Below the pieces are notes generated by a model. It was not told the DNA's origin, ran no database searches, and was given only the letters and a program-made list of their open reading frames with translations. 64,000 nt of DNA from assembly GCA_009377375.1 (NCBI GenBank), contig WHUE01000007.1, forward strand, positions 2,816-66,815, given 5' to 3'. Positions 18,808 to 49,968 of this stretch are shown here, piece by piece (position 1 is the stretch's first letter; every line of letters begins with the position of its first letter). The stretch is from Alphaproteobacteria bacterium (lineage in GTDB: Bacteria; Pseudomonadota; Alphaproteobacteria; MPNO01; UBA2964). Both the position numbers and the translations under genes were made by a program.

Positions 18808-18820
18808 CTCCTCAATATAG

Positions 18821-20443: not shown

Positions 20444-20447
20444 CCTT

Positions 20448-21680: not shown

Positions 21681-21689
21681 GGCGGTCCT

Positions 21690-22469: not shown

Positions 22470-22624
22470 TGTCCCTGTCTGCCGGTCCGGTCTGTTGCGG
22501 TATCCGGCAGACTATACCCGCACAGTCTGTGCGTAAAACCGCCGGAGGGGTTTTTTCAAGAGCACGCCCCGCCCGGCGCGTCGCGCCCCCTCGACGACCC
22601 GGCGCGAATTTGTTAGACCGTGCC

Positions 22625-22822
22625 TGCCGACGGTCCCCGCAGGGGGCTAACAGGGAATTCCGGTGCGTCGGCGGACCATGCTCGTCCGCCTGCAAGTCCG
22701 GAGCTGTTCCCGCAACTGTAAGCGGTAAAAAGGGGCTCATGCAGCCACTGGTTCCACGAGCGCGTCGTGGTCCGGGAAGGCGAGCCAACCACCTTCCGCA
22801 AGCCAGGAGACCTGCCGTCGGA
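22625..22822 (+). ncRNA. Cobalamin (AdoCbl) riboswitch upstream of metE
   Basis: Conserved blocks in order: ACAGGGAA, CCGGTG, AAGTCCGG, CCCGCAACTGTAA, GCCACTG, GGGAAGG, AAGCCAGGAGACCTGCC. Confidence 0.93.
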
Positions 22823-22866
22823 TTGTTGATCCCAGAGAGCCGACCGGGATGTGTCGGCGGAGGTAT

Positions 22867-22956
22867 ATGATGACGACCCTACCACCCACCGGGCATCCGT
22901 CCCGGCCCCTCTCCCGACACATGACGGCACAACGGGAGCAGCGACCGGACCGCTGA
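22867..22956 (+). CDS. Putative 29-aa leader peptide
   Basis: GGAGG RBS then ATG; MMTTLPPTGHPSRPLSRHMTAQREQRPDR*; stop lies 1 nt before the next ATG. Confidence 0.3.
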   Translation: MMTTLPPTGHPSRPLSRHMTAQREQRPDR

Positions 22957-22957
22957 C

Positions 22958-23281
22958 ATGGCCCGACCGCGCCGGTGGCGGCGGTCGGACAGCCAGTCAT
23001 GTCCCGAGACGTCCCCGCAGGGGCCGCTGCGCCTGCGCCTCTCGCCTCGTGACGATCCCGGCCGGCTCCTGGAGATCACGTTCCTCGACGGAGCCGGGAC
23101 GGACGACCCGGAAACGGTCGTCCTCGCATGGCTCGCCATCCTTCCGAACGGCCTCGACCCACCGGACGCCGCGCGCCGGCTCCATCGCCGGCTGACGACG
23201 CTCGCACCCGAGCGACTCACGCCGCAACAGATGCGGCTGCTCTCGCTCCTCGACCTGATCGCGGCGCATCGCCGGGCATGA
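22958..23281 (+). CDS. Small hypothetical protein between the B12 riboswitch and metE
   Basis: 107-aa ORF that fills the gap; C-terminal two-thirds look protein-like (LLEITFLDG...VVLAWLAILP...LLSLLDLIAA). Confidence 0.55.
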   Translation: MARPRRWRRSDSQSCPETSPQGPLRLRLSPRDDPGRLLEITFLDGAGTDDPETVVLAWLAILPNGLDPPDAARRLHRRLTTLAPERLTPQQMRLLSLLDLIAAHRRA

Positions 23282-23328
23282 TCCGGCGCATCGCCATCTG
23301 AACTGAACTGAAAAGGAGGACTGAACGA

Positions 23329-25602
23329 ATGACCCAATCAGCCAATCTCGGATATCCGAGGATCGGCCGACGCCGCGAACTGAAGAAGGTGACCGAGGCC
23401 TACTGGAAGGGCGACGTCGACGCCATTTCGCTGCTCGACGCCGCCGCCGGGCTCCGCGCCCGCCACTGGCGGACGCAGAAGGATGCCGGGATCGGCATCG
23501 TCCCGTCCAACGACTTCTCGTTCTACGACCAGGTCCTGGATATGACCGCCATTCTCGGCGCCGTGCCGACGCGGTTCGGGCACGAGGGCGGCAGGGTCGC
23601 GCTCGATACCTATTTCGGGATGGCGCGCGGCACGCCGGACGCGTCGGCGATGGAAATGACCAAGTGGTTCGACACGAACTACCACTACATCGTGCCGGAG
23701 ATCGGGCCGGACCAGCGCTTTTCGCTGTCGTCGCTGAAGCCGGTGGAGGAATTCCGCGAAGCGCAGGCGCTCGGCATCCATACGCGTCCGGTTCTCATCG
23801 GTCCGGTAACCTACCTGCTGCTTGCCAAGCCGACGGAGGCCGGGTTCGAGCCGCTCGCGCTGCTCGACCGGGTCCTCCCGCTCTACGCGGAGCTCCTCGC
23901 GCGGCTCTCCGTGGCCGGGGCCGACTGGGTGCAGATGGACGAGCCGGCGCTCGCGCTCGACCTCACCGACGACCGGTGCGCCGCCTTCGACGCCGCATAC
24001 CGGTCGCTGTCGACGGCCACGCCCAGGATCATGCTGACCACCTATTTCGGCGCGCTCGGCGACAACCTGGAGACCGCTGCGGGGCTGCCGGTGGACGGGC
24101 TGCATGTGGACCTTGTCCGCGCGCCGGGTCAGCTCGAGGCGGCGCTCCACGCCCTTCCGGCCGACCGGGTCCTTTCGCTGGGCGTCGTCGACGGGCGGAA
24201 CGTGTGGCGATGCAATCTTTCCGGAGCGTTCGAACGCATCGAACAGGCGATCGCCGCGCGCGGTCCCGAAAGGCTCCAGATCGCGCCATCCTGCTCGCTC
24301 CTTCACGTCCCGCAGGACCTCGGAAGCGAGACCGGACTCGACGACGAGCTTAGATCCTGGCTCGCCTTCGCCGATCAGAAGCTGGCGGAGGTGGCCGCGC
24401 TCGCGACGGCCGCGACCGCGGGCAAGGACACGGTCGCCGATGCATTCGAGGCGAGCGACGCGGCGGTCGGCTCACGCGCGCAGTCCCCCCGCATCCATAA
24501 CCCGGCGGTCAAGGCGCGTACCGCCCGCGTTTCGGACGAGGCCATGAACAGGGCGAGCCCATTCCGGCTCCGCCGCGCGCGGCAGCAGGCAGCGACCCCC
24601 CTTCCCGCCTTTCCGACCACGACGATCGGCTCGTTTCCCCAGACGGCGGAGGTCCGCAAGGCGAGGGCGGCGCACCGGCGGGGCAGGCTGGACGCGGCGG
24701 CGTACGAGGCTTTTCTCAGAACAGAGACGGAAAAGGCGGTCAGGCTTCAGGAGAAGCTCGAAATAGACGTGCTCGTCCATGGCGAGTTCGAACGTAACGA
24801 TATGGTGGAGTATTTCGGCGAACAGCTCGATGGCTTCGCCTTCACCGAACACGGCTGGGTGCAGTCGTTCGGGTCGCGCTACGTGAAGCCGCCGATCATC
24901 TTCGGCGACGTATCGAGGCCGAAGCCGATGACGACCGCCTGGTCCGCCTACGCCCAGTCCCTCACCGAACGACCAATGAAAGGTATGCTGACCGGGCCGG
25001 TGACAATCCTGCAATGGTCGTTCGTCCGCGACGATCAGGCGCGGTCGGAAACCTGCAGGCAGATCGCGCTCGCCATACGCGACGAGGTCGTCGACCTGGA
25101 GCGCTGCGGCATCCGCTTCATCCAGATCGACGAGCCCGCCCTCCGCGAGGGCCTGCCGTTGCGACGCGACGAACGGGACGACTACCTCGGCTGGGCCGTC
25201 GGATGCTTCCGCCTCGCCGCCGCCGGGGCCGCCGACGAGACGCAGATTCACACGCATATGTGCTACTGCGAGTTCAACGACATCATGCCGTCCATAGCCG
25301 CGCTCGATGCCGACGTGATCTCGATCGAGACTTCCCGATCGCACATGGAACTGCTCGACGCCTTTATCGGCTTCAGCTATCCGAACGACATCGGACCGGG
25401 GGTTTACGACATTCATTCGCCCCGATGTCCAGACGCAGACGAGATGGCGGCACTGATCGACAAGGCGACCGAACGGCTCCAGCCCGACCAGATCTGGGTG
25501 AACCCGGATTGCGGCCTCAAGACCCGAAGTTGGGCGGAGGTCGTTCCGGCCCTTGAGAACATGGTGGAGGCGGCCAGGCGGCAACGGGCCCGCCGCTCCT
25601 GA
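23329..25602 (+). CDS. metE: Cobalamin-independent methionine synthase
   Basis: LGYPRIG, KWFDTNYHY, TTTIGSFPQT, HGEFERNDMVEYF, HTHMC, NPDCGLKTR. Confidence 0.97.
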   Translation: MTQSANLGYPRIGRRRELKKVTEAYWKGDVDAISLLDAAAGLRARHWRTQKDAGIGIVPSNDFSFYDQVLDMTAILGAVPTRFGHEGGRVALDTYFGMARGTPDASAMEMTKWFDTNYHYIVPEIGPDQRFSLSSLKPVEEFREAQALGIHTRPVLIGPVTYLLLAKPTEAGFEPLALLDRVLPLYAELLARLSVAGADWVQMDEPALALDLTDDRCAAFDAAYRSLSTATPRIMLTTYFGALGDNLETAAGLPVDGLHVDLVRAPGQLEAALHALPADRVLSLGVVDGRNVWRCNLSGAFERIEQAIAARGPERLQIAPSCSLLHVPQDLGSETGLDDELRSWLAFADQKLAEVAALATAATAGKDTVADAFEASDAAVGSRAQSPRIHNPAVKARTARVSDEAMNRASPFRLRRARQQAATPLPAFPTTTIGSFPQTAEVRKARAAHRRGRLDAAAYEAFLRTETEKAVRLQEKLEIDVLVHGEFERNDMVEYFGEQLDGFAFTEHGWVQSFGSRYVKPPIIFGDVSRPKPMTTAWSAYAQSLTERPMKGMLTGPVTILQWSFVRDDQARSETCRQIALAIRDEVVDLERCGIRFIQIDEPALREGLPLRRDERDDYLGWAVGCFRLAAAGAADETQIHTHMCYCEFNDIMPSIAALDADVISIETSRSHMELLDAFIGFSYPNDIGPGVYDIHSPRCPDADEMAALIDKATERLQPDQIWVNPDCGLKTRSWAEVVPALENMVEAARRQRARRS

Positions 25603-25656: not shown

Positions 25657-26061
25657 TCAGCCCTCCTCCGCCACCGTCTCGTACTCGGCCGGCATGGTAA
25701 GTTCCAGCAGCTCGTAATCGTCGGAGTAGTACATCACGTTGTGCTTGATGCAGGGCGGCTGGATCCAGCAGTCTCCAGCCTCGAACTCCACCTCGCCATG
25801 GCCCTCGAACCAGACCCGCGAGCGGCCCTTGAGCACGAATACCATCTGGAACTCCAGGTCGTGATAGTGCGGACCGCTGCCCCCCTCCGGGCACGGCCGG
25901 GTGGTGCGGATGATCTGGGCATGGACCGCCCCCTTGGTCGCTTCGGCGATGCCGAGATCGCGATAGGCGCGGTATACCCGCAACCCGCCGTCCACGAACG
26001 GGTTTTCGCTGATCCTGTTGACCATGAATGTAGACGGAATTTTCGTGGTCGTGGTATCCAT
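25657..26061 (-). CDS. Cupin-domain protein
   Basis: PHYHDLEFQMVFVLKG...QPPCIKHNV metal-binding cupin pattern; start re-picked at 26061. Confidence 0.82.
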   Translation of the reverse strand: MDTTTTKIPSTFMVNRISENPFVDGGLRVYRAYRDLGIAEATKGAVHAQIIRTTRPCPEGGSGPHYHDLEFQMVFVLKGRSRVWFEGHGEVEFEAGDCWIQPPCIKHNVMYYSDDYELLELTMPAEYETVAEEG

Positions 26062-26233
26062 GTCCCTGCTCCTCCCTGAGTATTGGACGCCCTTTCGGAC
26101 TATGGCGCAGCACGGACGGCGCGAAAACGACTTTCGCCCGGCCGGGCCGCTTGAATTCGACATGCCGGCGCGCCAAATCGGTATGAGTCCGGCCGCCCCA
26201 TGGTTGCCGTTTCGACGTTCAAACCGGATTATT

Positions 26234-27766
26234 GTGATCGAGAAAGACTTCCTGGCCGAGCGCCGAGACTTGCTCCTTTGGCCGCTCGCCGCCGCATTGC
26301 TCTCCGCGGCGGCGCCTTTGCGCGCCGCGGAGCCGGTGGAAGGCACCCCTTTTTCCCGGCGCACGGTGCCGGACCTCGCCCGGACGCTGGCGGCGAGGGC
26401 ATTCCGCCCGCCTGCAGCGGTGCCGGACGAACTGAAGAAGCTGACCCGCGAACAGTACCGCAGCATTCAGTACCGCAAGGACCTCGCCGTCTGGGGCCGC
26501 GCGCCGACCCGCTTTTCCATCGAGATGCTGGCGCCGGGATTTCTTTACCGCGACCTGGTCGAAGTCGACGTGGTGGAGAACGGCCGCGCACGGCCGCTGA
26601 GCGGCGACCAGTCCTCGTTCAAGGCGCCGTCGGAGGCGATTGCAAAGCTGCTGGCCCAGGCGGGTAGGTTCGCGGGGTTCCGCCTGAACTATCCGCTGAA
26701 ACGGAAGGACACCGCCGACGAGTTCCTGACATTCCAGGGCGCCAGCTATTTCCGCGGTCACTCCCGCGGGCAGCGATACGGCCTTTCGGCGCGCGGGCTG
26801 GCCGTCGATGTCGCGGAGCCGGGCGGCGAGGAAAAGCCGCTGTTCCGGCATTTCTGGATAGAGCGGCCGCCCGCGGGAGCGGACAACATCGTCGTCCATG
26901 CGCTGCTGGACAGCCGGCGTGTGGCCGGCGCCTTCCGTTTCGGCATCTATCCCGGAAAACCGCTGACCATGGACGTCGAGACCGAGCTGTATCCGCGCAC
27001 GGCGCTGCGTCATGTCGGGCTGGCGCCGCTGACATCCATGTTCCTGTTCGGACCGATGGACCGGGACGGCATCCAGGATTACCGCCCCGCGGTTCATAAC
27101 TCGCACGGGCTGGCCATGATCAACGGCCAGGGCGAACGGATCTGGCGGCCGGTCAGCAATCCGACGACGCTGCAGATCAGCCAGTTCATGGACAAAAGCC
27201 CCAAGGGCTTCGGCCTCGTGCAGCGCGACCGCAATTTCAGCCGCTATCAGGACCTGGAGGCCCGCTTCGACCGGCGCCCGTCCGCCTGGATCGAGCCGCG
27301 CGGAGACTGGGGGCCCGGCCATATCCAGCTGGTCGAGATTCCGTCCCGGTCGCAGGGAAACGACAACATCGTCGCCTACTGGCGGCCGCGCGACGGGTTG
27401 AAGACCGGACAGCCCTTCACCTATGCCTACAGGCTCACATGGCCGGACGACGCGCCGGCGGCGGGGCCGCTCGCGCGCGTCGTCTACTCCGCCTATTCAC
27501 GCGCAGCGGAGACGGAGAACAGGCGGGTCGTCATCGACTACGCCGGCGACGCGATGCGGCCCGGAACGAAGCCGGAGATCGAGGCATCGGTCAGTCCCGG
27601 CCAGCTCGTCCGCAAGACGGTCCGCGACAACCCCCAGACCGGCGGCGTGCGGATATTCATCACATTTAACACCGGCGATGCGAAATCGGCGGAGTTGCGC
27701 GTGCAACCAAAAATGAACGGAGAGGCGCTTGGCGAAACCTGGCTCTATCGTTGGACGGCTGAATAA
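26234..27766 (+). CDS. opgG: Periplasmic glucan biosynthesis protein, OpgG/OpgD (MdoG/D) family
   Basis: FQGASYFR, YGLSARGLAVD, APLTSMFLFG, AVHNSHGL, GFGLVQR, NDNIVAYW; Tat-like ERRDLL signal; GTG start inferred; OpgG versus OpgD not resolved. Confidence 0.88.
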   Translation: MIEKDFLAERRDLLLWPLAAALLSAAAPLRAAEPVEGTPFSRRTVPDLARTLAARAFRPPAAVPDELKKLTREQYRSIQYRKDLAVWGRAPTRFSIEMLAPGFLYRDLVEVDVVENGRARPLSGDQSSFKAPSEAIAKLLAQAGRFAGFRLNYPLKRKDTADEFLTFQGASYFRGHSRGQRYGLSARGLAVDVAEPGGEEKPLFRHFWIERPPAGADNIVVHALLDSRRVAGAFRFGIYPGKPLTMDVETELYPRTALRHVGLAPLTSMFLFGPMDRDGIQDYRPAVHNSHGLAMINGQGERIWRPVSNPTTLQISQFMDKSPKGFGLVQRDRNFSRYQDLEARFDRRPSAWIEPRGDWGPGHIQLVEIPSRSQGNDNIVAYWRPRDGLKTGQPFTYAYRLTWPDDAPAAGPLARVVYSAYSRAAETENRRVVIDYAGDAMRPGTKPEIEASVSPGQLVRKTVRDNPQTGGVRIFITFNTGDAKSAELRVQPKMNGEALGETWLYRWTAE

Positions 27767-29897
27767 CGCCGAGGCGAACACGCCCATCCCGCTGGGCACG
27801 CGGGCGCTGCCACCGGAGGCTCCGCGCGACATGCCGCGCGCGCGGCTGCACGACCGGGCAAAGGCACTGCGCGCCGCGCCATCCGCGTGGTTCGCGACCC
27901 GGGTTCTCCTCGCGCGGCTCTATGTCGGCGCCGGCACCGGCGCGCTCACGGCCTACGGCGTGTCCGAGATGTACGGCGTGCTGGGCACAGTCGGGCTTAC
28001 CCCGCTGCAATGGGCCTTCCTCGTCGTGTTCGCCGTCAATTTCACCTGGGTGTCGTTTGCGCTGGTGCAGGCAAGCCTCGGCTTCCTTCGGCATCTCTCG
28101 CAGTCCTGGCGGCGGCGCAGCCGCATACCCATGGCGCCGTCCATCCGCACCGCGATCCTGGTGCCCGTCTACAACGAGGATCCGGCGCCGGTGGCCAACG
28201 CGATCCGGGCCATGACCGGGCCGCTGGCCGACGTGGCCCCGGACCGCTTCGCCGTCTTCATCCTGAGCGACACGAACCGCGCCGGCGCCTGGGTGACGGA
28301 AGAGGAATGCTTCCGTCACCTGTGCCTTTCCGCACCGGAAGGGTGTCCGATCTACTACCGCCGCCGCAAGGACAACGTGGAGCGCAAGGCGGGCAACATC
28401 GCGGAATGGGTCGGCCGCTGGGGCGGGGCGTTCGAAGCCATGCTGATCCTCGATGCCGACAGCGTGATCGCCCCCGAAACGATCCTGAGCCTGGCGGGGC
28501 GGCTGGAAGCCGATCCGGGGCTGGGGCTGCTCCAGACCCTGCCGTCAATCTTCGGGGCGCGGACGCTCTATGCGAGGCTGCAGCAGTTCGCCAACCGGTG
28601 CTACGGCCCGATCTTCGCCAACGGGCTCGCCGCGTGGCACGGGCTGAGCGGCAATTACTGGGGCCACAACGCGATAATCCGCACCCGCGCCTTCGCCGAG
28701 TCCTGCCGGCTGCCGGAGCTGCCCGGCGCACCGCCGCTGGGCGGCCACATACTCAGCCACGATTTCGTGGAGGCCGCGTTGCTGCGCCGGGCCGGCTGGG
28801 GCGTGCGCTTCGACACCGACCTCGAGGGCAGCTACGAGCAGGCGCCGCCGTCGCTGGTCGACACCATGATCCGCGACCGCCGCTGGTGCCAGGGCAACAT
28901 GCAGCACGCGCGCATTCTGTTCGCCCGCGGGCTGCGATGGACGAGCCGGCTGCATCTGCTGTCCGGCGTCATGTCCTACCTGACGGCGCTGCTCTGGCTG
29001 ATGCTGATCCTGCTCGGCCTGGCGCTGGCGACGCAGGCGGCGCTCATCCGGCCGGAATACTTCACCGAGCCTTCCCTGTTTCCCACCTGGCCGGTCTTCG
29101 ATTCCGAACGCGCGATCAGCCTGTTCGCGGTCTCCATGGCGGTGGTGCTGGCGCCGAAGCTGCTCGGCTGCCTGGCGGCGGTGCTCGACCTCCGCCGCTT
29201 CGCCGCCTTCGGCGGCCCGATCGTGCTGACCTGGAGCGTGTTCATCGAGATGATCCTGTCCGCGCTCTACGCGCCGGTTCTGATGATCACCCAGGCGCGC
29301 GACATCTGCGCCACGCTGATCGGGCGCGACAGCGGCTGGACGCCGCAGCGGCGCGGCGGCGGCGGCATGAAGCTGGCCGAGCACATCCGGCGCAACCGCG
29401 CCGCCACCGTCGCCGGCGCCGCGATGGCGGGTATCGCCTGGACGCTCAATACCGACCTTTTCCTCTGGCTGCTGCCCGTGACGGCGGGGCTGATTCTGTC
29501 CGTGCCGCTGTCCTGGATCAGCGAGAGACGCGGGCCGGCGCGGGCGCTCGGGGTCTTTGGCATCCTGTCGACGCCGGAGGAGCGGCATCCGCCCCCGGTG
29601 TTGAGGGGGCTCGCCTCCGGTGACGGTCCCGCCACCGCCCATCAGGCCCATCCACTGCGCCGGCTGCGCGACGACCCCGCGCTGTGTCGCTGGCACGCGG
29701 CACAGCTGGCAAGCCCCGTGGAAGAAGGACGCAACGGGTTCGACCCCGAGATGATCACCGGGCTGGCGAAGGTGGACCGGGCCCCGGATTTCGAAACGCT
29801 GATCGAGTGGCTGTCGCCGGCGGAGACGCTGGCCCTGCTCCGTTACCGGCCGTTCATCGAAGGCCTCTCCCGGACGGAGCGCGCGACCGTCGCTTGA
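27729..29897 (+). CDS. opgH: Glucans biosynthesis glucosyltransferase H
   Basis: PVYNED, RKAGNI, LDADS, NYWGHNAIIR, LSHDFVEA, RDRRWCQGN; exact start uncertain. Confidence 0.93.
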   Translation: MAKPGSIVGRLNNAEANTPIPLGTRALPPEAPRDMPRARLHDRAKALRAAPSAWFATRVLLARLYVGAGTGALTAYGVSEMYGVLGTVGLTPLQWAFLVVFAVNFTWVSFALVQASLGFLRHLSQSWRRRSRIPMAPSIRTAILVPVYNEDPAPVANAIRAMTGPLADVAPDRFAVFILSDTNRAGAWVTEEECFRHLCLSAPEGCPIYYRRRKDNVERKAGNIAEWVGRWGGAFEAMLILDADSVIAPETILSLAGRLEADPGLGLLQTLPSIFGARTLYARLQQFANRCYGPIFANGLAAWHGLSGNYWGHNAIIRTRAFAESCRLPELPGAPPLGGHILSHDFVEAALLRRAGWGVRFDTDLEGSYEQAPPSLVDTMIRDRRWCQGNMQHARILFARGLRWTSRLHLLSGVMSYLTALLWLMLILLGLALATQAALIRPEYFTEPSLFPTWPVFDSERAISLFAVSMAVVLAPKLLGCLAAVLDLRRFAAFGGPIVLTWSVFIEMILSALYAPVLMITQARDICATLIGRDSGWTPQRRGGGGMKLAEHIRRNRAATVAGAAMAGIAWTLNTDLFLWLLPVTAGLILSVPLSWISERRGPARALGVFGILSTPEERHPPPVLRGLASGDGPATAHQAHPLRRLRDDPALCRWHAAQLASPVEEGRNGFDPEMITGLAKVDRAPDFETLIEWLSPAETLALLRYRPFIEGLSRTERATVA

Positions 29898-35379: not shown

Positions 35380-35404
35380 AAGGGCCCGCACCCTGCGGGC
35401 CCTT
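35380..35404. terminator. Bidirectional intrinsic terminator candidate
   Basis: 11-bp stem AAGGGCCCGCA / TGCGGGCCCTT between convergent genes. Confidence 0.65.
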
Positions 35405-35427: not shown

Positions 35428-35919
35428 TCAGCCCCCCTGGGCTGCCTTGCGCGCGCGTTCCTCGTAGAAGTTGAGCAGCTTGATCACGTCCGCCGCATCC
35501 ACGCGGCCGATGGGGCCGGCGCTGTAGCTGGAGGCGATCACCTTGCCGTCCGCGCCGACCACGAATTCCGACGGCTGTATGATGCCGCCGCGCTGCTCGC
35601 CCCAGAACGCGCCGGCGGCGTCACCCTGCTCGCGGGTCGCGCCGAAGGCCACGGGAAACGAGACCTCGTCCTGGACTTCCTTCGCCTTGTCTTCCGGATC
35701 GACGCTGATCGCGAACACCTTCGCGGCCAGCGCCTCGAACCCGGCCCTTTCCTTCTCGAAGCCGACCAACTGCCGGCGGCAGTAAGGTCACCAGTGGCCG
35801 CGGTAGAACAGGATGACGTTGTACTTGGCGCCCGCCTCCGGCACCACGAAGGTGCCGCCGCCGACCTTGTTGAAGGTCAGGCTGGGGAACGCGTCGCCCA
35901 AGTTCAGCTTGTCTGTCAT
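35428..35919 (-). CDS. Selenocysteine-containing peroxiredoxin-like (AhpC/TSA, thioredoxin fold) protein, Sec at codon 44
   Basis: Reading through TGA at 35790-35788 gives 163 aa [16 protein letters not shown]...[17 protein letters not shown]...; the TGA occupies the first Cys of the FYRGxWCPxC motif; divergent from selA; hairpin immediately 3'. Confidence 0.9.
35761..35777 (-). promoter_or_regulatory. Candidate bacterial SECIS element
   Basis: GCCGGC-AGTTG-GTCGGC 17-nt stem-loop (one G-U pair) beginning after a 10-nt spacer following the UGA. Confidence 0.6.
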
Positions 35920-36035
35920 GCCGCTCGCTTTCGGTTGCAACCGCCGCCATTCTCAGCGCCGGACCGCGCCGGCGCAAGGACCGAATTCCGCAAATTCCCG
36001 TTGTCGGCGGCAGGCCCTGCCCCTACTCTCCCGCC

Positions 36036-37460
36036 GTGCCACAGGAAACCCGGACCAGCCCGGCGCAGGCCGCCATCCCGTCGGTCGACCGCATTCTCCG
36101 CGATCCGGCGTGCGACGTCCTTGTCGTCCGCTTCGGCCGCCGGCCCGTGACCGAGGCCGTGCGCGGCGACGTGGCGGCGCTGCGCGGGCGGCTGGCGGAG
36201 GGCGGTCGCGAAGCCGCGGAGGTCGGCGCCATCGTCGCGCGGGTTGCCGCGGCGCTGGAGCGCGCGGCGCAGCCCAGCCTGCGCCCGGTGTGGAACCTGA
36301 CCGGCACGGTCCTGCATACCAATCTGGGCCGCGCGCCGCTGCCGCCGGAGGCCATCGAGGCGGTGGTGGCCGTCGCCGGCGGGGCCAGCAACCTGGAATA
36401 CGACCTCGCCACCGGAAAGCGCGGCGACCGCGACGTGCATCTCGACGACCTCGTCTGCCGGCTGACCGGGGCGGAGGCGGCGACGGTGGTGAACAACAAC
36501 GCCGCCGCCGTGCTGCTGACGCTGAACACACTGGCGCAGCGCAAGGAGGTGCTGGTTTCGCGCGGCGAGCTGATCGAGATCGGCGGCGCCTTCCGCATCC
36601 CCGACATCATGGCCCGCGCGGGTGCGAAACTGCACGAAGTCGGCACCACAAACCGTACTCATGAAAAGGATTTTTTAGATTCCATCACCCCCCGCACTGC
36701 CCTGGTGATGAAGGTGCATGCCAGCAACTACGAGATAAGCGGCTTCACCAAATCCGTGCCCGAGCGCGAGCTGGCCGCGATCGCGCATGGCGCCGGCCTG
36801 CCCTTCGCCGTCGATCTCGGCAGCGGCACGCTGGTCGACCTCGCGCAGTACGGGCTGCCGCACGAACCGACGGCCGCGGAGACCATTGCCAGCGGCGCCG
36901 ACATCGTCACCTTCAGCGGCGACAAGCTGCTGGGCGGACCGCAGGCCGGGCTGATCGCCGGGCGCGCGGACCTGATCGCCCGCATCAGGAAGAACCCTAT
37001 GAAGCGCGCCATGCGCTGCGACAAGATGACCATCGCCGCGCTGGCTGCCGTGCTGCGGCTCTACGACGATCCCGACCGGCTGGCCGAACGCGTGCCGACG
37101 CTCCGGCTGCTCGCGCGACCGCGCGCCGAGATCGAGGCCGCTGCGCAGCGCCTGCTGCCCGCCATGCGGGCGGCCGCCGGCGAGGGTTTCGCGGTCGGGG
37201 TCGCGCCCTGCCGCAGCCAGATCGGCAGCGGCTCTCTGCCGGCGGAGCGGCTCGACAGCGCGGCGCTGGTGCTGCGCCCGGCGGCGGCGCGCGGCGCGGG
37301 CACGGCGCTGGTGCGGCTCGCGGCGGCCTTCCGGGCACTGCCCGTGCCGGTCATCGGCCGGGTGCAGGACGATGCGTTCCGGCTCGACCTGCGCTGCCTG
37401 GAGCCCGAAGGCGAGGCGGCGTTCGCCGCGCAGCTCCCGGCGCTCGCCCTGCGGCCATGA
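36036..37460 (+). CDS. selA: L-seryl-tRNA(Sec) selenium transferase
   Basis: [64 protein letters not shown] (PLP Lys). Confidence 0.97.
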
Positions 37461-39400
37461 TTGTCGCCACAGCGGGTCATATCGACCACGGCAAGACGGT
37501 GCTGGTGAAGGCGCTGACCGGGGTGGATACCGACCGGCTGCCGGAGGAGAAGAGCCGCGGCATCTCCATCGATCTCGGCTACGCCTACCAGCCGCTGGAG
37601 TCCGGCGAGGTGCTGGGCTTCATCGACGTGCCCGGCCACGAACGCTTCGTGCGCAACATGCTCGCCGGCGTCACCGGCATCGACTACGCCATCCTCGTCG
37701 TCGCCGCCGATGACGGACCGATGCCGCAGACCGAGGAGCACCTGGCCATCCTCGACCTGCTCGGCGTGGCGCAAGGCTGCGTCGTCATCACCAAGACCGA
37801 CCGGGTGGACGCCGCGCGCGCCGCCGAGGTCGCCGGGCTGGTGGAGATACTGACCGACGGCACGGTGCTGGCGGGCGCGCCGGTCTTTCCGGTCTCGGCG
37901 CTGGCGGGCGATGGGATGGCGGCGCTGCGCGATCACCTCGCCGCAGTCGCGGCGGAAACGGGCCGCCGGGCCACCGCCGGGCCGTTCCGGCTCGCCATCG
38001 ACCGCCGCTTCATCGTGCCGGGCGCCGGGCTGGTGGTGACCGGAACCGTGTTCTCCGGCACGGTGGCGCGGGACGATCAGCTCGTGCTCTCGCCCGCCGG
38101 AACACGGGTGCGGGTGCGCGGGCTGCACGCCCAGAACCGCGAGGCGGCGACGGGCGCGGTCGGCCAGCGCTGCGCGCTCAACATCGCCGCCGCCGGGCTG
38201 GCGCTGGACGGCGTGCGGCGCGGCGACTGGGTCCTGGCCGAATCCGCCGACGCCCCGACCGCGCGCTTCGACGCCCGCATCCGGGTGCTGAAGAGCGAGG
38301 CGCGCGCCCTGCGCCACTGGACGCCGGTGCACCTGCATATCGGCGCGGCGGATATACCGGCACGCGTCGCCGTGCTCGGCGCGCGCGAGATTCGTCCGGG
38401 AGAAAGCGCGGCGGTGCAGCTCGTGCTGAATGCGCCGACATCGGCGCTGCGCGACGACCGGCTGATCCTGCGCGACCAGTCGGCGCGGCGGACCGTCGCC
38501 GGCGGGCGAGTGATCGACCCGTTCGCCCCGGCGCGGGGCCGCGGCCGGCCGGAGCGGCTCGAGGAGCTCTCGATCCTGGAAGAGGACGATCCCGCGACCG
38601 CGCTGCGCGCGCTGCTGGCGGGGCGGGCACAGGGGGTGGAACTCGACCGGTTCGCCCTGGCCCGCAACCTGCCCGACGCGGCGGCCGAGGCGCTTTGGCA
38701 GTCCGTGCCGATGGTCCGCATCCGGACCGGCAGGGCGGAGATCGGGATGGACCCCGCACTGTGGCAGGGCTGGTCGGAGCAGACGATGGCGGCGCTCGCC
38801 GCATGGCACGACACCCGACCGGACGAGCCCGGCCCGCCGGAAAGCGCGGTCCGCGACCGGCTCGCTCCGCGCCCCGCCGCGCCCGTCTTCTCCGCCGTGG
38901 TCGCGAAACTCGCCGGCAGCGGCAGGCTGGTCGCCGCCAACCGGCTTCTGAGCGCGCCGGACCACCGGCCGGGGATGAACGCCGCCGACCGCAAGCTGTG
39001 GGCGATGCTGGCGCCGCTGCTGACGGAGGCCCCGCTGCGCCCGCCCTCGGTCCACGACCTCGCCGCCGCGACCGGGCTGGCGGAACGGGCGGTGACCGGC
39101 TTCCTGCGCCGTGCCGGGGCGATGGGGCTGGTGGCGCAGCTCGCCCCCAACCGCTTCATCCTCGCCGGCACGCTGCGGCAGCTCGCCGAGGCCGCCGCAG
39201 CGCTGTCGGCCGAAAAGCCCGACGGCGCGTTCACCGCCGCCGAGTTCCGCACCGCCGGCGGCATCGGCCGCAACCTGGCCATCGAGGTGCTGGAGCATTT
39301 CGACTCCCGCGGGCTGACCCGCCGGCGTGGCGACCTGCGCGAGGCCGCGCGCAGCCCCGACGCCGTGTTCGGTGCGCGCCCCGACGCGCCCGCCGGTTGA
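37457..39400 (+). CDS. selB: Selenocysteine-specific elongation factor
   Basis: [39 protein letters not shown]; C-terminal winged-helix [13 protein letters not shown]; ATGA overlap with selA. Confidence 0.97.
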
Positions 39401-39426
39401 TCGCAGGGGCGCCGCCCCCCTATAGT
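39397..39426 (+). promoter_or_regulatory. Sigma70-like promoter for selC
   Basis: TTGATC-N18-TATAGT ending 12 nt before the tRNA 5' end. Confidence 0.45.
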
Positions 39427-39438
39427 CGCGCCCGCCGC

Positions 39439-39534
39439 GGAAGGGATTCGCAAGCCGGTGCTGCGCCCGGGCTTCAAACCCGGTGAGGGACGTTCAACGT
39501 GTCTGGTGGGTTCGACTCCCACTCTCTTCCGCCA
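39439..39534 (+). tRNA. selC: tRNA-Sec (UCA)
   Basis: 8-bp acceptor GGAAGGGA/TCTCTTCC plus GCCA; anticodon arm CCGGG-CT-TCA-AA-CCCGG; long variable arm; T arm GTGGG-TTCGACT-CCCAC (8+5 fold). Confidence 0.97.
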
Positions 39535-39676
39535 CGCTTTCCCGCAGCGGCCGCCCTTATCGCAATTCCAGGACTGTCGCCCCGGCTCGAAGACCGGGGC
39601 GACAGTCCTGTATGAGGCATACGACCGGGCAATATGCGCTATACTGCCTGCGGCTGCGCTGCAGGGAGGCACGAGC

Positions 39677-40522
39677 ATGCTCAACAAATTCCATTACGAC
39701 GGCACGTTCCGCTGGCCGGAGGACCGCCGGCTCGCCGTGACGCTGACCTTCGACTTCCAGGGCGGCGAGGACGTCCGCCCGGGACGCGACGGCAGGATCG
39801 ACCACGAGAAATACACCCAGGCGGAGTACGGTCCGAACACCGCCATCTGGCGCATCCTGCGCATCCTCGAGGAGGAAGACGTCGCCGCCACCTTCATGAC
39901 CTGCGGCGCCATCGCCGAGCGCTACCCGGAGGCGGTGGAGGCGATCCGGGCGGCGGGACACGAGGTCGCCGGGCACGGCTATCACCACGAGGTCGCCCGC
40001 GAACTTTCCCGCGAGGACGAGTCCGAGGTGATGCGCAAAACCATCGCCATGATCGAGGACCGCGCCGGCGCGCGGCCGATGGGCTGGCGGTCCTGCACCC
40101 AGAGCCCGAACAGTATCGCGCTGCTGATGGATCACGGATTTCTGTGGAACAGCAATACCTTCTCGCACGATCTTCCCTTTCTGTGGGAAGAATCGGGCCG
40201 CGTACTGGTGGAGTTGCCGCGCCAGCCCTTCGGCGACGGGCGCACCTATTTCGCCGACCACGGCAACCCGGCCGACACGCTGGCGGTCTGGCAGACGATG
40301 TTCGACGAACTGCATGAAGAGGCGCAGGAAAGCCCGGGCTACTGCCCGTTCCAGTTTCATCCCTACATCTCGGGCCGGCCGGGCCGGGCCACGACGCTGC
40401 GCCGTATCATCCGTCACATGAAGCAGGACGGCGTCTGGTTCGCGACCGGCTCGGAAGCCGCGCGCTGGTGCCTCGACGAGCTGTTCAGGGACGCGACGGA
40501 CCGGATCGCCGCGGCATCCTGA
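39677..40522 (+). CDS. Polysaccharide deacetylase family (PuuE/PgdA-like) hydrolase
   Basis: LTFDF, AEYG, ATFMTCG, HEVAGHGYHH, FHPYISGRPGR. Confidence 0.82.
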   Translation: MLNKFHYDGTFRWPEDRRLAVTLTFDFQGGEDVRPGRDGRIDHEKYTQAEYGPNTAIWRILRILEEEDVAATFMTCGAIAERYPEAVEAIRAAGHEVAGHGYHHEVARELSREDESEVMRKTIAMIEDRAGARPMGWRSCTQSPNSIALLMDHGFLWNSNTFSHDLPFLWEESGRVLVELPRQPFGDGRTYFADHGNPADTLAVWQTMFDELHEEAQESPGYCPFQFHPYISGRPGRATTLRRIIRHMKQDGVWFATGSEAARWCLDELFRDATDRIAAAS

Positions 40523-43953: not shown

Positions 43954-44366
43954 TCGGCCGGCACCGTCAGCAGGCGGAGTTTCCTGACCCCGGCTTCGCG
44001 CAGAAGCTCCATCACCTCGACCACGCGCGTCGCGGGCGTCCGGCCGTCCGCCTTCACCCGGACCTCCGGCACCCGGGAGCCGTCGCCCGCGCGCGCGGCC
44101 AGCACCGCCCTCAGCCCGGCCCCGTCCAGGATCGCGCCCTCGAGCCCGATCCGGCCGTCCGCGCCGATCAGCACCACGATATCGGCCGCGCCCGGCTCGC
44201 TCTCGCTGGCCGAGGACGGCGGCTCGATGTCGAACGGATCGGTGGCGGCGAGCTGACCTGCCAGCATGAAGAAAATCAGCAGCAGGAAGACGACGTTGAT
44301 CAGCGGCAAAATGCGCTCGTCGTCGCTCTTCGGCCGGGGCGGATCGAAGCGCATGGTTCGGCTCAC
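43950..44366 (-). CDS. exbD: ExbD/TolR biopolymer transporter
   Basis: ILPLINVVFLLLIFFM, VKADG. Confidence 0.88.
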   Translation of the reverse strand: MSRTMRFDPPRPKSDDERILPLINVVFLLLIFFMLAGQLAATDPFDIEPPSSASESEPGAADIVVLIGADGRIGLEGAILDGAGLRAVLAARAGDGSRVPEVRVKADGRTPATRVVEVMELLREAGVRKLRLLTVPAE

Positions 44367-44794
44367 CGTGCGTCGCGGATCAGGGACATGTTGCCGACCC
44401 CCGCCGCGGCGAGCCGGTCGAGCACGACGACGACGTCCTGCACCGGCACGCCCTTCGCCGGCCGCACCAGCACACGCCGATCAGGCTTCTTCGCGAGCGA
44501 GTCGGCGGCGCGCCGCACCAGCCGGTCGAGCGAGACCGTCTCGCCACCGAGGCGCAGCCCGTCGTCGCGGATCTCCACCAGCAGCGCGCCTTCCATCGAG
44601 GGGCTGGCCGCCGCGCGGCCCGGCGCATCGAGCGCGATCGCCCGCCAGTTCAGGAAGGACGAGGCCAGCATGAAGAAGATGAGCAGGATGAACACCACGT
44701 CGATCAGCGGTGTCAGGCTGATGAGCCCCCGGCGGCGGCCGCTACTCGGCGGCGCCAGCGACAGCCGGTCTGTAAGCTGCTTGGGCATGGCCAT
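44363..44794 (-). CDS. exbD: ExbD/TolR biopolymer transporter
   Basis: LTPLIDVVFILLIFFM; start uncertain (overlaps the exbB 3' end). Confidence 0.87.
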   Translation of the reverse strand: MAMPKQLTDRLSLAPPSSGRRRGLISLTPLIDVVFILLIFFMLASSFLNWRAIALDAPGRAAASPSMEGALLVEIRDDGLRLGGETVSLDRLVRRAADSLAKKPDRRVLVRPAKGVPVQDVVVVLDRLAAAGVGNMSLIRDAR

Positions 44795-45512
44795 CCTGTC
44801 CTCGATGCGGGATTGAAAGGTCCTCGGTGAAGACCTGGGTGACGACGCTGTCCATCTCGTGCGCCAGCCGGTCGACGATGCGTTCCAGCCAGTTGACCGC
44901 GGCCACCGTCGGAATGGCGACGGCAAGCCCGACCGCGGTGGTGAGCAGCGCCTCCCAGATGCCGCCGGACAGGATCGCCGGGTTGATCCGGTTGCCCGCG
45001 GCCTCGAGCTGCTGGAACGCGGAGATCATGCCCAGCACGGTGCCGAACAGCCCCAGCAGCGGCGCCAGCGTCGCGATCACTTCCAGCGGCCGGAAGAAGG
45101 TTCGCAGCGATTCCAGCATTTCGCTGCCGGCGCGGACCACCTCCTCGCGGACCAGGGAGTCCGGCAGGTCGCGCCGTTCGCGGCCGCGGATCGCCAGCGC
45201 CAGCGCCCGGGCGACCGGATTTGCGCTGCCTGCGGCGACTACCAGCGCCTCCGCCGCGTTGCCGCCGCGATAGAGCGCCAGGGCCCGGCGGGCCGGGGCG
45301 CGGCCCCAGAGCCGGGCCTTGCGGAACTGCCAGAGCTTGAGCACCAGGATCGCGACCGCGACGACGGACATCGCCAGCAGGATCGCCACGACCGGCCCGC
45401 CGGCCAGCAGCAGCTCCGCCCCGCGTTCGGCCAGGGCCTGCGCCGTCCCGACCGCCGGCGGGGCGGCCTCGACTGCCTCGGCGGGCGCCGCGGTCATTCC
45501 CTCGTTTTCCAT
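44742..45512 (-). CDS. exbB: ExbB/TolQ/MotA proton channel
   Basis: APLLGLFGTVLGMI..F, GGIWEALLTTAVGLAVAIP. Confidence 0.93.
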   Translation of the reverse strand: MENEGMTAAPAEAVEAAPPAVGTAQALAERGAELLLAGGPVVAILLAMSVVAVAILVLKLWQFRKARLWGRAPARRALALYRGGNAAEALVVAAGSANPVARALALAIRGRERRDLPDSLVREEVVRAGSEMLESLRTFFRPLEVIATLAPLLGLFGTVLGMISAFQQLEAAGNRINPAILSGGIWEALLTTAVGLAVAIPTVAAVNWLERIVDRLAHEMDSVVTQVFTEDLSIPHRGQDGHAQAAYRPAVAGAAE

Positions 45513-45606
45513 TACGCCTTCCTCTGCAACCTTGCTGCGTGCCACCGATCCGCCCTTCCCCTGTCTCCATGACGGATGATGGCGGCCGGTTTCCACATGA
45601 ATTCCA

Positions 45607-46041
45607 TCACTTGATCAGCGGCGCGGCGGCGCGGGAGCTGGTCGTGACCAGCCCGGTGCAGTCGTCGCGCCGGCCCGACGCATCGCGGCAGGCCATGACG
45701 TCGTTGAGCAGGATGCGGCCGATCCCGGGGCACGGGATGCCGTCGATGTCGAACACCTTGAGGCTGGTCTTGCCGGCGCCCAGCGGCGCGCCCTGCACCG
45801 CCACGCGGCGGCCCACCACCCCGTCGGCGTCGAACATCACCAGATCCAGCTTGAGCTCCTGAAACGCGCTGCCGGTCCCGTTCTTCAGCACCAGATAGGC
45901 CCGGCACGCGTCCTTGCGCGGCTCCAGCTTGTTCAGCTCCACCGCGATCCCCGGCTCGGCGGCGGCGGGCACAGTATGGGCAAGCACGGCGGCCAGCGCG
46001 GCAGCGAGGGCGGTCGGCTTTCGGCATGAATCCCAGTCCAT
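45607..46041 (-). CDS. Exported hypothetical protein with four Cys, first gene of the exbB-exbD-exbD-tonB unit
   Basis: Signal peptide (AALAAVLAHTVPAAA); ELNKLE, DLVMFD, KTSLKVFD; four Cys in the mature part. Confidence 0.75.
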   Translation of the reverse strand: MDWDSCRKPTALAAALAAVLAHTVPAAAEPGIAVELNKLEPRKDACRAYLVLKNGTGSAFQELKLDLVMFDADGVVGRRVAVQGAPLGAGKTSLKVFDIDGIPCPGIGRILLNDVMACRDASGRRDDCTGLVTTSSRAAAPLIK

Positions 46042-46106
46042 CGGCTCCTGTCTTCGCGAAAAAGGCGCGGCATGCGAACGCCACCGCCGGGCGACCGCGT
46101 ACTCAT

Positions 46107-46125
46107 AATGCGAATAACTCGCAAT
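46107..46125. promoter_or_regulatory. Fur-alpha-like box
   Basis: AATGCGAATAACTCGCAAT near-palindrome upstream of the exb/tonB unit. Confidence 0.7.
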
Positions 46126-46141
46126 CGCAAGGAAAACGACG

Positions 46142-46351
46142 CTATTTTCGTTTCCACAGCGGTTTCCGCGGGCGCGCGGACCACGCCACCGTCAGCAGGA
46201 GCGCGCCAAGGGCCAGCCACGAGACGACGTCCCAAGGGCCGTCGCCGACCAGCGCGGAGACCAGCCCGGCCATTCCCATGGCCGCGAGTGCCGCCGGGAC
46301 CGCGAACACCCGCGCGGCGGACCGCCCCGAGGCGGGCTCCTGCCCCGTCAT
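46142..46351 (-). CDS. 69-aa two-TM membrane protein coupled to the PepSY-TM gene
   Basis: ATGA overlap with the PepSY stop; VFAVPAALAAMGMAGLVSALVGDGPWDVVSWLALG. Confidence 0.7.
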   Translation of the reverse strand: MTGQEPASGRSAARVFAVPAALAAMGMAGLVSALVGDGPWDVVSWLALGALLLTVAWSARPRKPLWKRK

Positions 46352-47502
46352 TCCGCCGCCGCGCCGCGCGCGTCCCGCTCGAGCGCGGCGATCCGCGCCT
46401 CGACCGGTACGCGCCGCCGCACCGCCCAGAGATAGAGCCCGCTGCCCAGCACCACGATGGTGATGATGTCGAGCAGCGCCCAGAGAATCTTCAGCGGCAG
46501 CCCGCCGTAATCGCCGAAATGCAGCGGCTGGGACACCAGAAGCGCGGTCACGTACCAGGGCAGATCGCGCGTCGCGGTCAGCCGACCGGTCTTGGCATCG
46601 ACGAGAACCGGCTTCACCAGCCGCGCGGTCAGCGGCGTTTCGCCGCGCATGAACACCGCGTAATGATGCGGGCTGGTAAAGGGCGTTCCCGGAAAGGCGA
46701 CGAAGGACGGGACCGTGTCGGGCGCCGCCTCGCGCGCGACCTCGATGGCGGGCCCGACCGGACCCGGCCGGCGCAGCGGGGGCGCGTCCCGGTAGGCCGC
46801 GACCATCTCGGCGAGCTGGTCGTTCTTCCACACGGCGAGGACGAGATCGGCCCAGGTGTTGATCACGCCGGTGGCGCCCACGACCAGCGCCCAGGACAGG
46901 GTGACGACGCCCAGCAAGTTGTGCAGATCGAGCCATTTCAGCCGCCGCGAGCCGCCCCTCCGCACGGTCCCGAAATCGAGGCGGCGCATGAACGGCCCGT
47001 AGACGACGACGCCGGACACGATGGCGACCACGAACAGCAGGCCCATCGCGCCGAGAAAAAGCTTGCCCGCCAGTCCCGCGAACATGTCGACATGCAGCGA
47101 CAGCAGGAAGTCCATCACGCCGTCCTGCCCGTTCCGTTCGGCGAGAACGGCAGCCGTGCGAGCATCGATCGCGACGGGGTCGTTTTCCACCGCATCGAGC
47201 GCGTCGGCGACCAGGAGCCAGATCACGTCCGGCGCATCGGCGTCCCAGACGAGGTACTGGGCGACCTTGCCGTCGCGCCCCGCCATTCCCGCGGTCACGA
47301 TCTCGTCCAGCGCAGCTTTCGGCGTCCCTGCCGGCATTTCCGGCGCGGAGACAGCATCGCCGAGCATCTCGTCGAGCTCATGATGGAAGATGAGCGGCAA
47401 TCCCGTCAGGCAGAGCATCAGAAGAAACGCCGTGCAGACCAGGCTCGTCCATTTGTGGACCCGGCACCAGATACCGATCGTGTTCGCCCGGAGCATCGTC
47501 AA
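46348..47502 (-). CDS. PepSY-associated TM-helix protein (ferrisiderophore reductase-like)
   Basis: VHKWTSL, LHVDMF, DLHNLLG, QPLHFGDYGG conserved His pattern. Confidence 0.88.
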   Translation of the reverse strand: MTMLRANTIGIWCRVHKWTSLVCTAFLLMLCLTGLPLIFHHELDEMLGDAVSAPEMPAGTPKAALDEIVTAGMAGRDGKVAQYLVWDADAPDVIWLLVADALDAVENDPVAIDARTAAVLAERNGQDGVMDFLLSLHVDMFAGLAGKLFLGAMGLLFVVAIVSGVVVYGPFMRRLDFGTVRRGGSRRLKWLDLHNLLGVVTLSWALVVGATGVINTWADLVLAVWKNDQLAEMVAAYRDAPPLRRPGPVGPAIEVAREAAPDTVPSFVAFPGTPFTSPHHYAVFMRGETPLTARLVKPVLVDAKTGRLTATRDLPWYVTALLVSQPLHFGDYGGLPLKILWALLDIITIVVLGSGLYLWAVRRRVPVEARIAALERDARGAAAE

Positions 47503-49832: not shown

Positions 49833-49968
49833 GTTATCGCCCCTCCTTCGCGCGCCGGTCCCGGACGCGGCAATTGTTAAGATTGCGAATTAATCGCACC
49901 CATGCCTTAACGACGTTTCGCGGGAGGCGACCTTGCAGCACCCGGCGAAAAAAAATCGCCGGGGCGTC
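49482..49968. repeat. Copy 1 of a ~490-nt duplicated upstream region + signal peptide + STN block
   Basis: Aligns by eye with 53617-54104. Confidence 0.85.
49882..49900. promoter_or_regulatory. Fur-alpha-like box
   Basis: ATTGCGAATTAATCGCACC upstream of receptor 1. Confidence 0.7.

Follow-up and report, generated by a model that had tools for sequence, protein, structure and literature searches.

The 64,000 nucleotides of alphaproteobacterial DNA analysed here, referred to below as the window, carry at 35428..35919 what is almost certainly a genuine Sec-encoding gene: a Prx-like UxxC selenoprotein with its SECIS element. A sequence-only reading of this DNA had proposed a read-through selenoenzyme at this locus, and the proposal is borne out by homology on both flanks of an in-frame TGA, by the presence of TGA at the same codon in 81 of 81 homologous gene copies, by a covarying hairpin 3' of that codon and by linkage to the sel genes.

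A TGA-interrupted gene beside selA, selB and selC

The prx-like gene runs on the minus strand from an ATG at 35919 to a TGA stop at 35430-35428 and contains one further in-frame TGA, at 35790-35788. This TGA is codon 44, in the context FYRGHW-TGA-PYC, and reading through it yields a product of 163 aa. The sequence-only reading had placed the start, the interrupting codon and the length of the product at exactly these values, and all of them match the sequence. It had also remarked that the ORF track shows a 113-aa fragment only; indeed, the sole entry for the prx-like locus in the ORF list is 35428..35769, with a TTG start. The gene, its proposed Sec codon and the neighbouring features are as follows.

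35428..35919, minus strand: full CDS of the very probable prx-like UxxC selenoprotein (ORF, Pfam AhpC-TSA, N-terminus alignment)
35788..35790, minus strand: UGA codon for Sec, U44 in the redox motif U44-P-Y-C47 (TGA conserved in homologs)
35920..36035, no strand: intergenic stretch separating the divergent prx-like and selA genes (116 bp)
36036..37460, plus strand: selA, L-seryl-tRNA(Sec) selenium transferase (Pfam SelA, E = 7e-160; TIGR00474, 592 bits, cutoff 268)
37457..39400, plus strand: selB, Sec-specific elongation factor (TIGR00475, 416 bits, cutoff 242)
39439..39534, plus strand: selC, tRNA-Sec with anticodon UCA (ARAGORN; Rfam RF01852, 69.2 bits, gathering score 47)
35380..35404, no strand: 11-bp hairpin rich in G+C and flanked by T-runs (consensus match only)

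For the domain search of the read-through protein, Cys was put in place of the codon-44 stop. The product then matched Pfam AhpC-TSA (pfam00578) over residues 8-128, with E = 5e-19 and 68.9 bits against a cutoff of 26, and also matched Redoxin. The sequence-only reading had named beforehand, as a finding that would speak against it, homology confined to one side of the TGA; the AhpC-TSA homology extends over both sides. The alignment of homologs agrees with this. The N-terminus MTDKL aligns with MADKL or MNEKL of the homologs, the invariant residues upstream of codon 44 include K4, F11, P12, G21, P27 and Y33, and an invariant block, L37-W43/P45-R48, straddles the Sec codon. In NCBIfam no model reached its cutoff for this protein, the SelL-related model scoring 23 bits (cutoff 120) and PrxU 22.5 (cutoff 270). 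The hydrophilic N-terminus shows no signal peptide, membrane anchor or hydrophobic segment, and those of the homologs are similar; with no signal sequence, the product is predicted to be cytoplasmic rather than periplasmic. When sequencing runs were searched for evidence of expression, similar sequence was found in metagenomic DNA runs only, each with at most 12% of the sampled words.

As the sequence-only reading had it, the prx-like gene stands head-to-head with selA: the two are divergent, with 116 bp between the ATG of the former and selA. The start of selB overlaps the stop of selA (ATGA), and selC begins 38 nt past the selB stop, so that all three sel genes lie within 3.6 kb of the prx-like gene. 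SelB carries the C-terminal winged-helix SECIS-binding domains (Pfam SelB-wing_2 and SelB-wing_3) and Beta-barrel_SelB. In G+C content both selA and selB exceed the genes of the window by about 2 SD, with ordinary GC3. The intergenic region 35920..36035 presumably holds the promoters of both the prx-like gene and selA; no match to the sigma-70 consensus was found in it. At the other end of the prx-like gene, a convergent BNR/sortilin-like gene ends at 35315, and the hairpin at 35380..35404 is likely, from its sequence, to be a bidirectional terminator shared by the two convergent genes.

Among the approximately 45 Pfam-annotated ORFs of the window there is neither a selD nor an fdhA or other formate dehydrogenase gene; selD, on which the synthesis of selenophosphate depends, may lie elsewhere in the genome. 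A GC3-based scan of the window for further TGA-interrupted genes returned none with a redox-like context, and the prx-like gene has no conserved functional partner within the 64 kb. Several conserved-neighbour 'clusters' were set aside as shadow ORFs antisense to selA and selB. The base composition of the sel module does not clearly point to a recent transfer. The window also has a canonical AhpC of its own, at 3455-4003.

Codon 44 in related genes

A protein search returned 341 relatives, and at least 576 turned up when genomes were scanned, one for each species. We compared codon 44 in the best 80 loci of these at least 576 relatives. They hold 81 gene copies, one locus (L080) having two prx-like paralogs, one on each side of selAB, and are 56-71% identical in amino acid sequence to the window protein. 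The 80 loci come from MAGs of Alpha- and Betaproteobacteria, except for one labelled as Gemmatimonadaceae, two as Pseudomonadota only and one as 'uncultured bacterium'. Codon 44 is TGA in every one of the 81 copies. True Cys homologs do exist, with TGC in L081 and TGT in L082, and are rarer than the TGA forms. A pattern in which close relatives all carry TGC or TGT, which the sequence-only reading had held to count against Sec, is thus the reverse of what was found: the closest relatives have TGA, and TGC or TGT appears in more distant ones. One further entry, L084, has CGA at codon 44, an intact downstream hairpin and a divergent C-terminus; the C-terminus is probably frameshifted and the entry itself is probably a decaying copy or a sequencing error.

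A conserved hairpin downstream of the UGA

The first 30 nt on the 3' side of the UGA are conserved far beyond what the protein needs, and 18 columns are invariant in the 45-nt alignment. Within this segment we assign the following features, numbering from the U of UGA as 1.

35761..35777, minus strand: SECIS upper stem-loop (RNAalifold, pair counts, bSECIS criteria)
35767..35769, minus strand: TTG codon of Leu51, which supplies loop nucleotides U22-U23-G24 and is also the false start of the 113-aa ORF

The stem-loop, hairpin B, has a 6-bp stem pairing G14-C19 with G25-C30 and an apical loop A20-G21-U22-U23-G24 (35771-35767); a lower extension pairing 10-11 with 33-34 is possible (35757-35781). 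An RNAalifold consensus computed on 77 distinct sequences gave the same 14-19/25-30 stem. When pairs were counted over 82 sequences, 97.6% of the cells were paired, a share equalled by none of 500 shuffles and reaching at most 53% in slid controls. The pair 15-29 occurs as CG in 65 sequences, GC in 3, UA in 2 and UG in 1, and in the GC cases a change of Arg48 from CGC to AGG is coupled with the replacement of Gly53 by Ala. For the pair 18-26 the counts are GU 33, GC 20, AU 9 and UA 1, and 9 of 72 distinct sequences have a mismatch there, U-U or another. Codon choice is constrained as well. Leu51 is TTG or TTA in 83 of 83 TGA forms, as compared with a TTR share of 10.9% among the remaining 1029 Leu codons of those genes, and Arg49 is never CGC, while CGC is the commonest Arg codon elsewhere. 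In the two Cys homologs, L081 and L082, Leu51 is CTA and CTT, respectively, which destroys the GUU of the SECIS loop; the loop motif is gone where Sec is gone.

The published bSECIS criteria ask for an apical loop of 3-9 nt, an upper stem of 4-16 bp and a G in the first two loop positions (PMC13188914, Fig. 2 legend), together with a distance of 16-37 nt from the UGA and an MFE of at most -7.5 kcal/mol (PMC13188914). Hairpin B falls within all four of the published constraints, with a 5-nt AGUUG loop, a 6-bp stem, a G followed by U at loop position 2 and a spacing of 16 nt, the lower limit of the published range. Its dG is -10.2 kcal/mol, and 80 of 82 homologs reach -7.5 kcal/mol or below. An Rfam search of the gene region at E up to 10 gave no match to a SECIS family and only chance matches on the terminator hairpin. 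Like the SECIS elements of E. coli fdhF and fdnG and the bSECISearch consensus, hairpin B is a stem-loop just 3' of the UGA, within the coding sequence, with a small loop containing G then U. The G-U of the fdhF element, G23-U24, corresponds to +21/+22 in hairpin B. The window element differs from those of fdhF and fdnG in its minimum spacing of 16 nt and its lack of an obvious bulged U. It also overlaps a competing 5' hairpin, considered below, and no Rfam model covers it.

Active site, fold and proposed mechanism

A structure model of a natural Cys homolog (P0009, 62% identical) had a pLDDT of 89.7 and a pTM of 0.87 and placed the CxxC at the N-terminus of a helix, 49-60. Its fold matches include Bcp4 (3hjp) and BcpB (5epf), at a TM of 0.81 and about 18% identity, and also ResA (3c73, TMt 0.81). 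By sequence the prx-like protein weakly matches ResA as well, and a thio-disulfide isomerase. In an alignment to BCP 2cx3, Sec44 falls on the Ser/Thr of the PxxxT/SxxC motif and Cys47 on the peroxidatic Cys, while the Prx Pro is replaced by Arg40 and the catalytic Prx Arg by Pro116 of an invariant QPSEF block. The protein has the Prx-type thioredoxin fold and does not have the canonical Prx motif, PxxxT/SxxC(U) with the catalytic Arg. With Sec44 at the Thr/Ser and Cys47 at the peroxidatic Cys, the site is therefore a thioredoxin-like UxxC. The sequence-only reading had called the protein peroxiredoxin-like with a UxxC site; the AhpC-TSA domain and the U44-P-Y-C47 motif agree with that description, although Sec is not at the peroxidatic position of a Prx.

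Taken together, the sequence and the model suggest that the protein is most likely a thioredoxin-type UxxC oxidoreductase working through a Sec44-Cys47 selenenylsulfide cycle. In the mechanism that we propose, with UGA-44 at the ribosome, the mRNA 14-30 nt downstream would fold into the 6-bp stem with its A-G-U-U-G loop. SelB would bind this SECIS and bring in Sec-tRNA(Sec), the product of the neighbouring selC and selA, and Sec would be inserted at UGA-44 in place of termination. In the finished enzyme, the Sec44 selenolate, at the N-terminus of helix alpha-1, would attack an oxidised substrate, whether a disulfide, a sulfenate or a peroxide; Cys47 would resolve the intermediate to give a selenenylsulfide, which a cellular thiol reductant would then recycle. 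Peroxidase activity through this UxxC route is possible and is not implied by the assignment.

Two groups of known proteins are useful for comparison. With the canonical Sec- and Cys-peroxiredoxins (AhpC, BCP, Prx6) the prx-like protein shares the thioredoxin/Prx fold and a Cys, Cys47, at the position of the peroxidatic Cys; it differs from them in having Sec in place of the catalytic Thr/Ser, Arg for the Prx Pro and Pro for the Prx Arg, and in an identity of only about 18%. With TlpA, ResA and CcmG, which combine CxxC with the thioredoxin fold, it shares a motif of the xCxxC type where helix alpha-1 begins, and by alignment an invariant Pro of the prx-like family would occupy the place of the cis-Pro of thioredoxin-like proteins. 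Unlike these proteins, it has no signal peptide or anchor and carries Sec for the first Cys.

A published family and its database records

Selenoproteins named 'Prx-like' were described from the Sargasso Sea (Zhang, Fomenko & Gladyshev 2005, PMC1088965), and 'Prx-like 1' of the GOS data, with pfam00578, UxxC and 225 selenoprotein reads, was reported subsequently (Zhang & Gladyshev 2008, PMC2398784). The Sec site of the published family is defined as UxxC (or UxxU), and its published members are computational predictions only. In the supplementary sequences, the active-site peptide GHWUPYC occurs in at least 27 GOS 'Prx-like 1' and in 4 Sargasso 'Prx-like' entries. The window protein is 57% identical to JCVI_READ_286511 (E = 8e-52) and 51% identical to JCVI_READ_1161201 (E = 1e-46), identities comparable with those of its best genomic homologs. 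It has in common with the GOS and Sargasso entries the Pfam domain, the UxxC, an identical LFYRGHW-U-PYCRRQL and the blocks IQPSEF and SSYSxGPxGR. It differs in coming from a soil or sediment-type high-GC genome rather than from marine reads and, where those entries are short reads, it offers the full genomic context beside selA-selB-selC. Judged by its sequence, the window protein belongs to the published 'Prx-like thiol:disulfide oxidoreductase' or GOS 'Prx-like 1' family which, given the shared peptide and the 57% identity, has therefore been on record since 2005. The sequence-only reading had spoken of a 'hidden' selenoprotein. This is true of annotation pipelines and does not hold for the literature, where the family stands as a predicted selenoprotein.

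We accordingly do not describe a new selenoprotein family. What is added here is modest: a covariation-supported SECIS, frequent sel linkage and systematic mis-annotation. The published accounts consulted for comparison make no mention of a covariation-supported SECIS or of frequent selABC linkage, nor do they remark on how Prx-like 1 contrasts with the claim that FdhA is the sole or primary selenoprotein of Alpha- and Betaproteobacteria.

The mis-annotation is extensive. Among the best 120 of the 341 database matches, 92 are fragments of about 105-114 aa, corresponding to the C-terminal two thirds of the protein, and 28 are full-length; the earlier expectation that standard pipelines would truncate this gene thus describes most of the best matches. 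The 92 fragments begin L/M-(V/A)-G-F, that is, at the TTG inside the SECIS loop. In the window as in these 92 records, the TTG of the SECIS loop is the false start taken by gene callers. In a cluster look-up the only source name was the 'peroxiredoxin' of JGI, attached to fragments. Of 26 full-length entries that were aligned, 23 read FYRGHW-W-PYC and 3 read FYRGHW-C-PYC. The W at codon 44 is an artefact of gene calling under code 4, because the DNA of one such 'W' entry has TGA and is untranslatable under code 11. The correct annotation of 35428..35919 would be a 163-aa selenoprotein, and not a 113-aa 'peroxiredoxin' fragment or a pseudogene. No NCBIfam model rescues the family, and a dedicated HMM together with a SECIS covariance model would mend hundreds of records.

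Alternative readings of the locus

A single in-frame stop formally looks like a nonsense mutation, and the gene could be a pseudogene in which a Cys (TGC/TGT) or Trp (TGG) codon has mutated to TGA, leaving it dead or giving fragments only. That decay does occur in the Prx-like family is shown by L084, with its CGA and divergent C-terminus. Such an origin is effectively refuted for the window gene, and its probability is negligible, given the 81 TGA codons in 81 copies from two proteobacterial classes, the purifying conservation on both sides of the codon, the conserved and covarying hairpin 3' of it, the constraint on synonymous codons and the linkage to selABC. A functional gene might instead have its TGA read as a standard residue, Trp or Gly, under an alternative code or through near-cognate read-through, and the W in 23 of the 26 full-length database entries seems at first sight to say so. 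The 'W' entry that was checked has TGA in its DNA, however, and fails to translate under code 11. Of the 40 genes that the window contains, 22, among them the prx-like gene and selA, end in TGA as an ordinary stop, and TGA is the commonest stop there; the genetic code is therefore not one in which TGA has been reassigned to Trp. The hosts, moreover, are high-GC proteobacteria with tRNA-Sec, selA and selB, and the natural alternative at codon 44 is Cys rather than Trp. We consider decoding as a standard residue extremely improbable.

Granting that Sec is inserted, the signal might not be hairpin B. The single-sequence minimum-energy structure of the isolated RNA is another hairpin, A (stem 8-13/17-22, loop G14-C15-C16, lower stem 1-5/24-28), at -15.1 as against -10.2 kcal/mol; its pair probabilities are about 1.0, those of the hairpin B pairs are almost zero in the ensemble, and across homologs 92.3% of its cells are paired. 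Hairpin A could then be the SECIS, or the two could act as a regulatory switch. The pairing of hairpin A is, however, no better than that of column shuffles (40 of 500 for the share of cells paired, 117 of 500 for the covariation score), and 5 of its 11 pairs depart by mismatches only, such as A3-C26 in 22 sequences. Its loop begins 10 nt past the UGA, outside the published 16-37 nt, and it leaves the invariant U22-U23 unexplained. When the UGA is in the A site of the ribosome, bases +1 to about +13 are inside the mRNA channel. The helix of hairpin A cannot exist at that moment and, from this known footprint, only hairpin B should be able to form at decoding. The same applies in E. coli to the minimal upper stem-loop of the fdhF SECIS. 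A role for hairpin A is thus quite improbable, and we retain hairpin B as the SECIS. As to the enzyme, the Pfam AhpC-TSA and Redoxin matches, the BCP and Prx structures among the best fold matches and the existence of Sec-containing peroxiredoxins (TxxU) would all suit a true peroxiredoxin, a peroxidase with Sec as the peroxidatic residue. This is unlikely in view of the alignment to BCP 2cx3, in which it is Cys47 that takes the peroxidatic position and Sec44 that of Ser/Thr, with Arg40 in place of the Prx Pro and the invariant Pro116 in place of the catalytic Arg; the literature, too, files UxxC forms apart from Prx (TxxU). A thioredoxin-type UxxC oxidoreductase remains the reading that we prefer.

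Linkage of the prx-like gene to selABC

In the best 80 of the at least 576 relatives, selB lies within 6 kb of the prx-like gene in 37 loci and selA in 30. The arrangements vary and include the divergent one of the window, a same-strand selA-selB-prx order and convergent genes. A linkage that recurs in rearranged form is what functional dependency would predict. Other TGA-containing genes accompany the pair in some loci. A deiodinase-like gene (FGSYT-TGA-PPF...EAHPSDGW) is found near the prx-like gene in 17 related loci; in the divergent loci that were inspected (L008, for example) it separates the prx-like gene from selA and is on the strand of the latter. A gene with FGSFT-TGA-PFC occurs in 2 related loci, and in 6 betaproteobacterial loci a DsbA/FrnE-like gene (FSDYV-TGA-PWCY) is directly 3' of the prx-like gene. 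The window itself is without a deiodinase-like, FGSFT-TGA-PFC or DsbA/FrnE-like TGA gene. Being linked to selABC so tightly and repeatedly, the prx-like gene would seem to be a main reason why these lineages retain the Sec machinery, at times jointly with the deiodinase- and DsbA-like genes.

In the textbook view, Sec decoding in Alpha- and Betaproteobacteria is maintained for formate dehydrogenase. Published statements likewise name FdhA as the only or primary selenoprotein of these two classes, and a selA-selB-selC operon with a neighbouring fdhA has been described from Alpha-, Beta- and some Gammaproteobacteria (Zhang et al. 2006, PMC1794560; PMC8124441). The window resembles that operon in having a compact sel cluster that adjoins a selenoprotein gene, and differs from it in that the neighbour is Prx-like instead of fdhA and that tRNA-Sec follows selB instead of being nested within selB. 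A wider reading, possible but doubtful, is that in a large group of Alpha- and Betaproteobacteria from soil and sea, uncultured and mostly aerobic, the Sec trait is kept not by formate dehydrogenase but by a compact 'selenoprotein island', probably horizontally transferable. Such an island would consist of selA-selB-selC and small thioredoxin-fold UxxC proteins, namely Prx-like 1 and, in some lineages, deiodinase-like and DsbA-like proteins; the window would represent its minimum, with Prx-like 1 as the sole linked selenoprotein and possibly the sole one in the genome. Whatever the reach of that idea, the linkage of the prx-like gene to selABC qualifies the view that centres selenium use by Alpha- and Betaproteobacteria on formate dehydrogenase.

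Additional interrupted redox genes at related loci

A motif scan of related loci revealed, close to the peroxiredoxin-like (prx-like) gene, a deiodinase-like selenoprotein gene (…FGSYT-TGA-PPFR…FLIYVxEAHPSDGW) whose own TGA breaks it into two ORFs. It was found at L001, L002, L003, L008-L011, L014, L015, L018, L020, L036, L039, L046-L048 and L083 (L001-L080 being the best 80 genomic loci with prx-like homologs, and L081-L084 further ones). In the divergent loci inspected, it separates the prx-like gene from selA, with which it shares a strand (for example L008:5198-5929, minus strand). Since the prx-selA gap in the window is only 116 bp and the same scan gave no match in the window, the deiodinase-like gene is absent there.

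In betaproteobacterial MAGs, the prx-like gene is directly followed by a different gene, DsbA/FrnE-like with the motif FSDYV-TGA-PWCY (L040, L041, L050, L055, L062 and L067). It lies on the same strand, some 80 nt past the stop codon of the prx-like gene, and the two apparently form one operon. It is a predicted second UxxC selenoprotein of these loci, which gene callers shorten, at VRIERL…. L006 (~3059) and L076 (~7074) have, on the minus strand and in the vicinity of the prx-like gene, a third type of interrupted gene, which is thioredoxin-fold-like (EFGSFT-TGA-PFC…YTREAHP).

One Burkholderiales MAG (L080) carries two prx-like UxxC paralogs, at 6133 and 11237, which flank selB and selA. Both have the TGA and the same SECIS hairpin; the second reads VFYRGHW-U-PYCGRQL. 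At L084:1187-1867, the homolog P0028 has CGA (Arg) in place of the TGA. Its SECIS hairpin is still intact despite this codon, but the protein ends in a divergent, extended C-terminus. P0028 is probably either a decaying copy or the product of a sequencing or assembly error.

Other genes in the window

Outside the selenocysteine locus, the window holds the following features:

17839-22511 (-), cluster of aromatic-ring hydroxylase, luciferase-like monooxygenase, hydrolase and cupin proteins
22614-22833 (+), cobalamin riboswitch (Rfam RF00174, 109 bits)
22925-23281, small ORF 3' of the riboswitch
23302-25602 (+), metE, cobalamin-independent methionine synthase, 3' of the riboswitch
25967-29897 (+), MdoG-like gene and family-2 (MdoH-like) glycosyltransferase
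39401-40522 (+), polysaccharide deacetylase, long ORF
44363-55684 (-), iron-uptake-like region: ExbB and ExbD (44363-45614), two tandem sets (46348-49889 and 50084-54009), FecR and ECF-sigma pair (54108-55684), all (-)

The riboswitch ahead of metE is the classic B12-repressed arrangement, and the MdoG-like and MdoH-like genes are an osmoregulated periplasmic glucan synthesis pair. In each iron-uptake-like set, a PepSY-TM protein accompanies an STN-domain TonB-dependent receptor. As listed (GTG at 39458), the deacetylase ORF overlaps tRNA-Sec (39439-39534); its Pfam domain runs from residue 124 of the listed ORF onward, and the true start codon has to be 3' of the tRNA.

The window also contains three further genes:

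2812-3387 (-), CMD/AhpD-like gene, following the peroxiredoxin gene
3455-4003 (-), canonical AhpC/TSA peroxiredoxin (Pfam E = 6e-36)
11051-11773 (-), Fe/Mn superoxide dismutase

Given the AhpC/TSA and CMD/AhpD-like genes, the selenoprotein exists in this genome alongside an ordinary Cys peroxiredoxin system.
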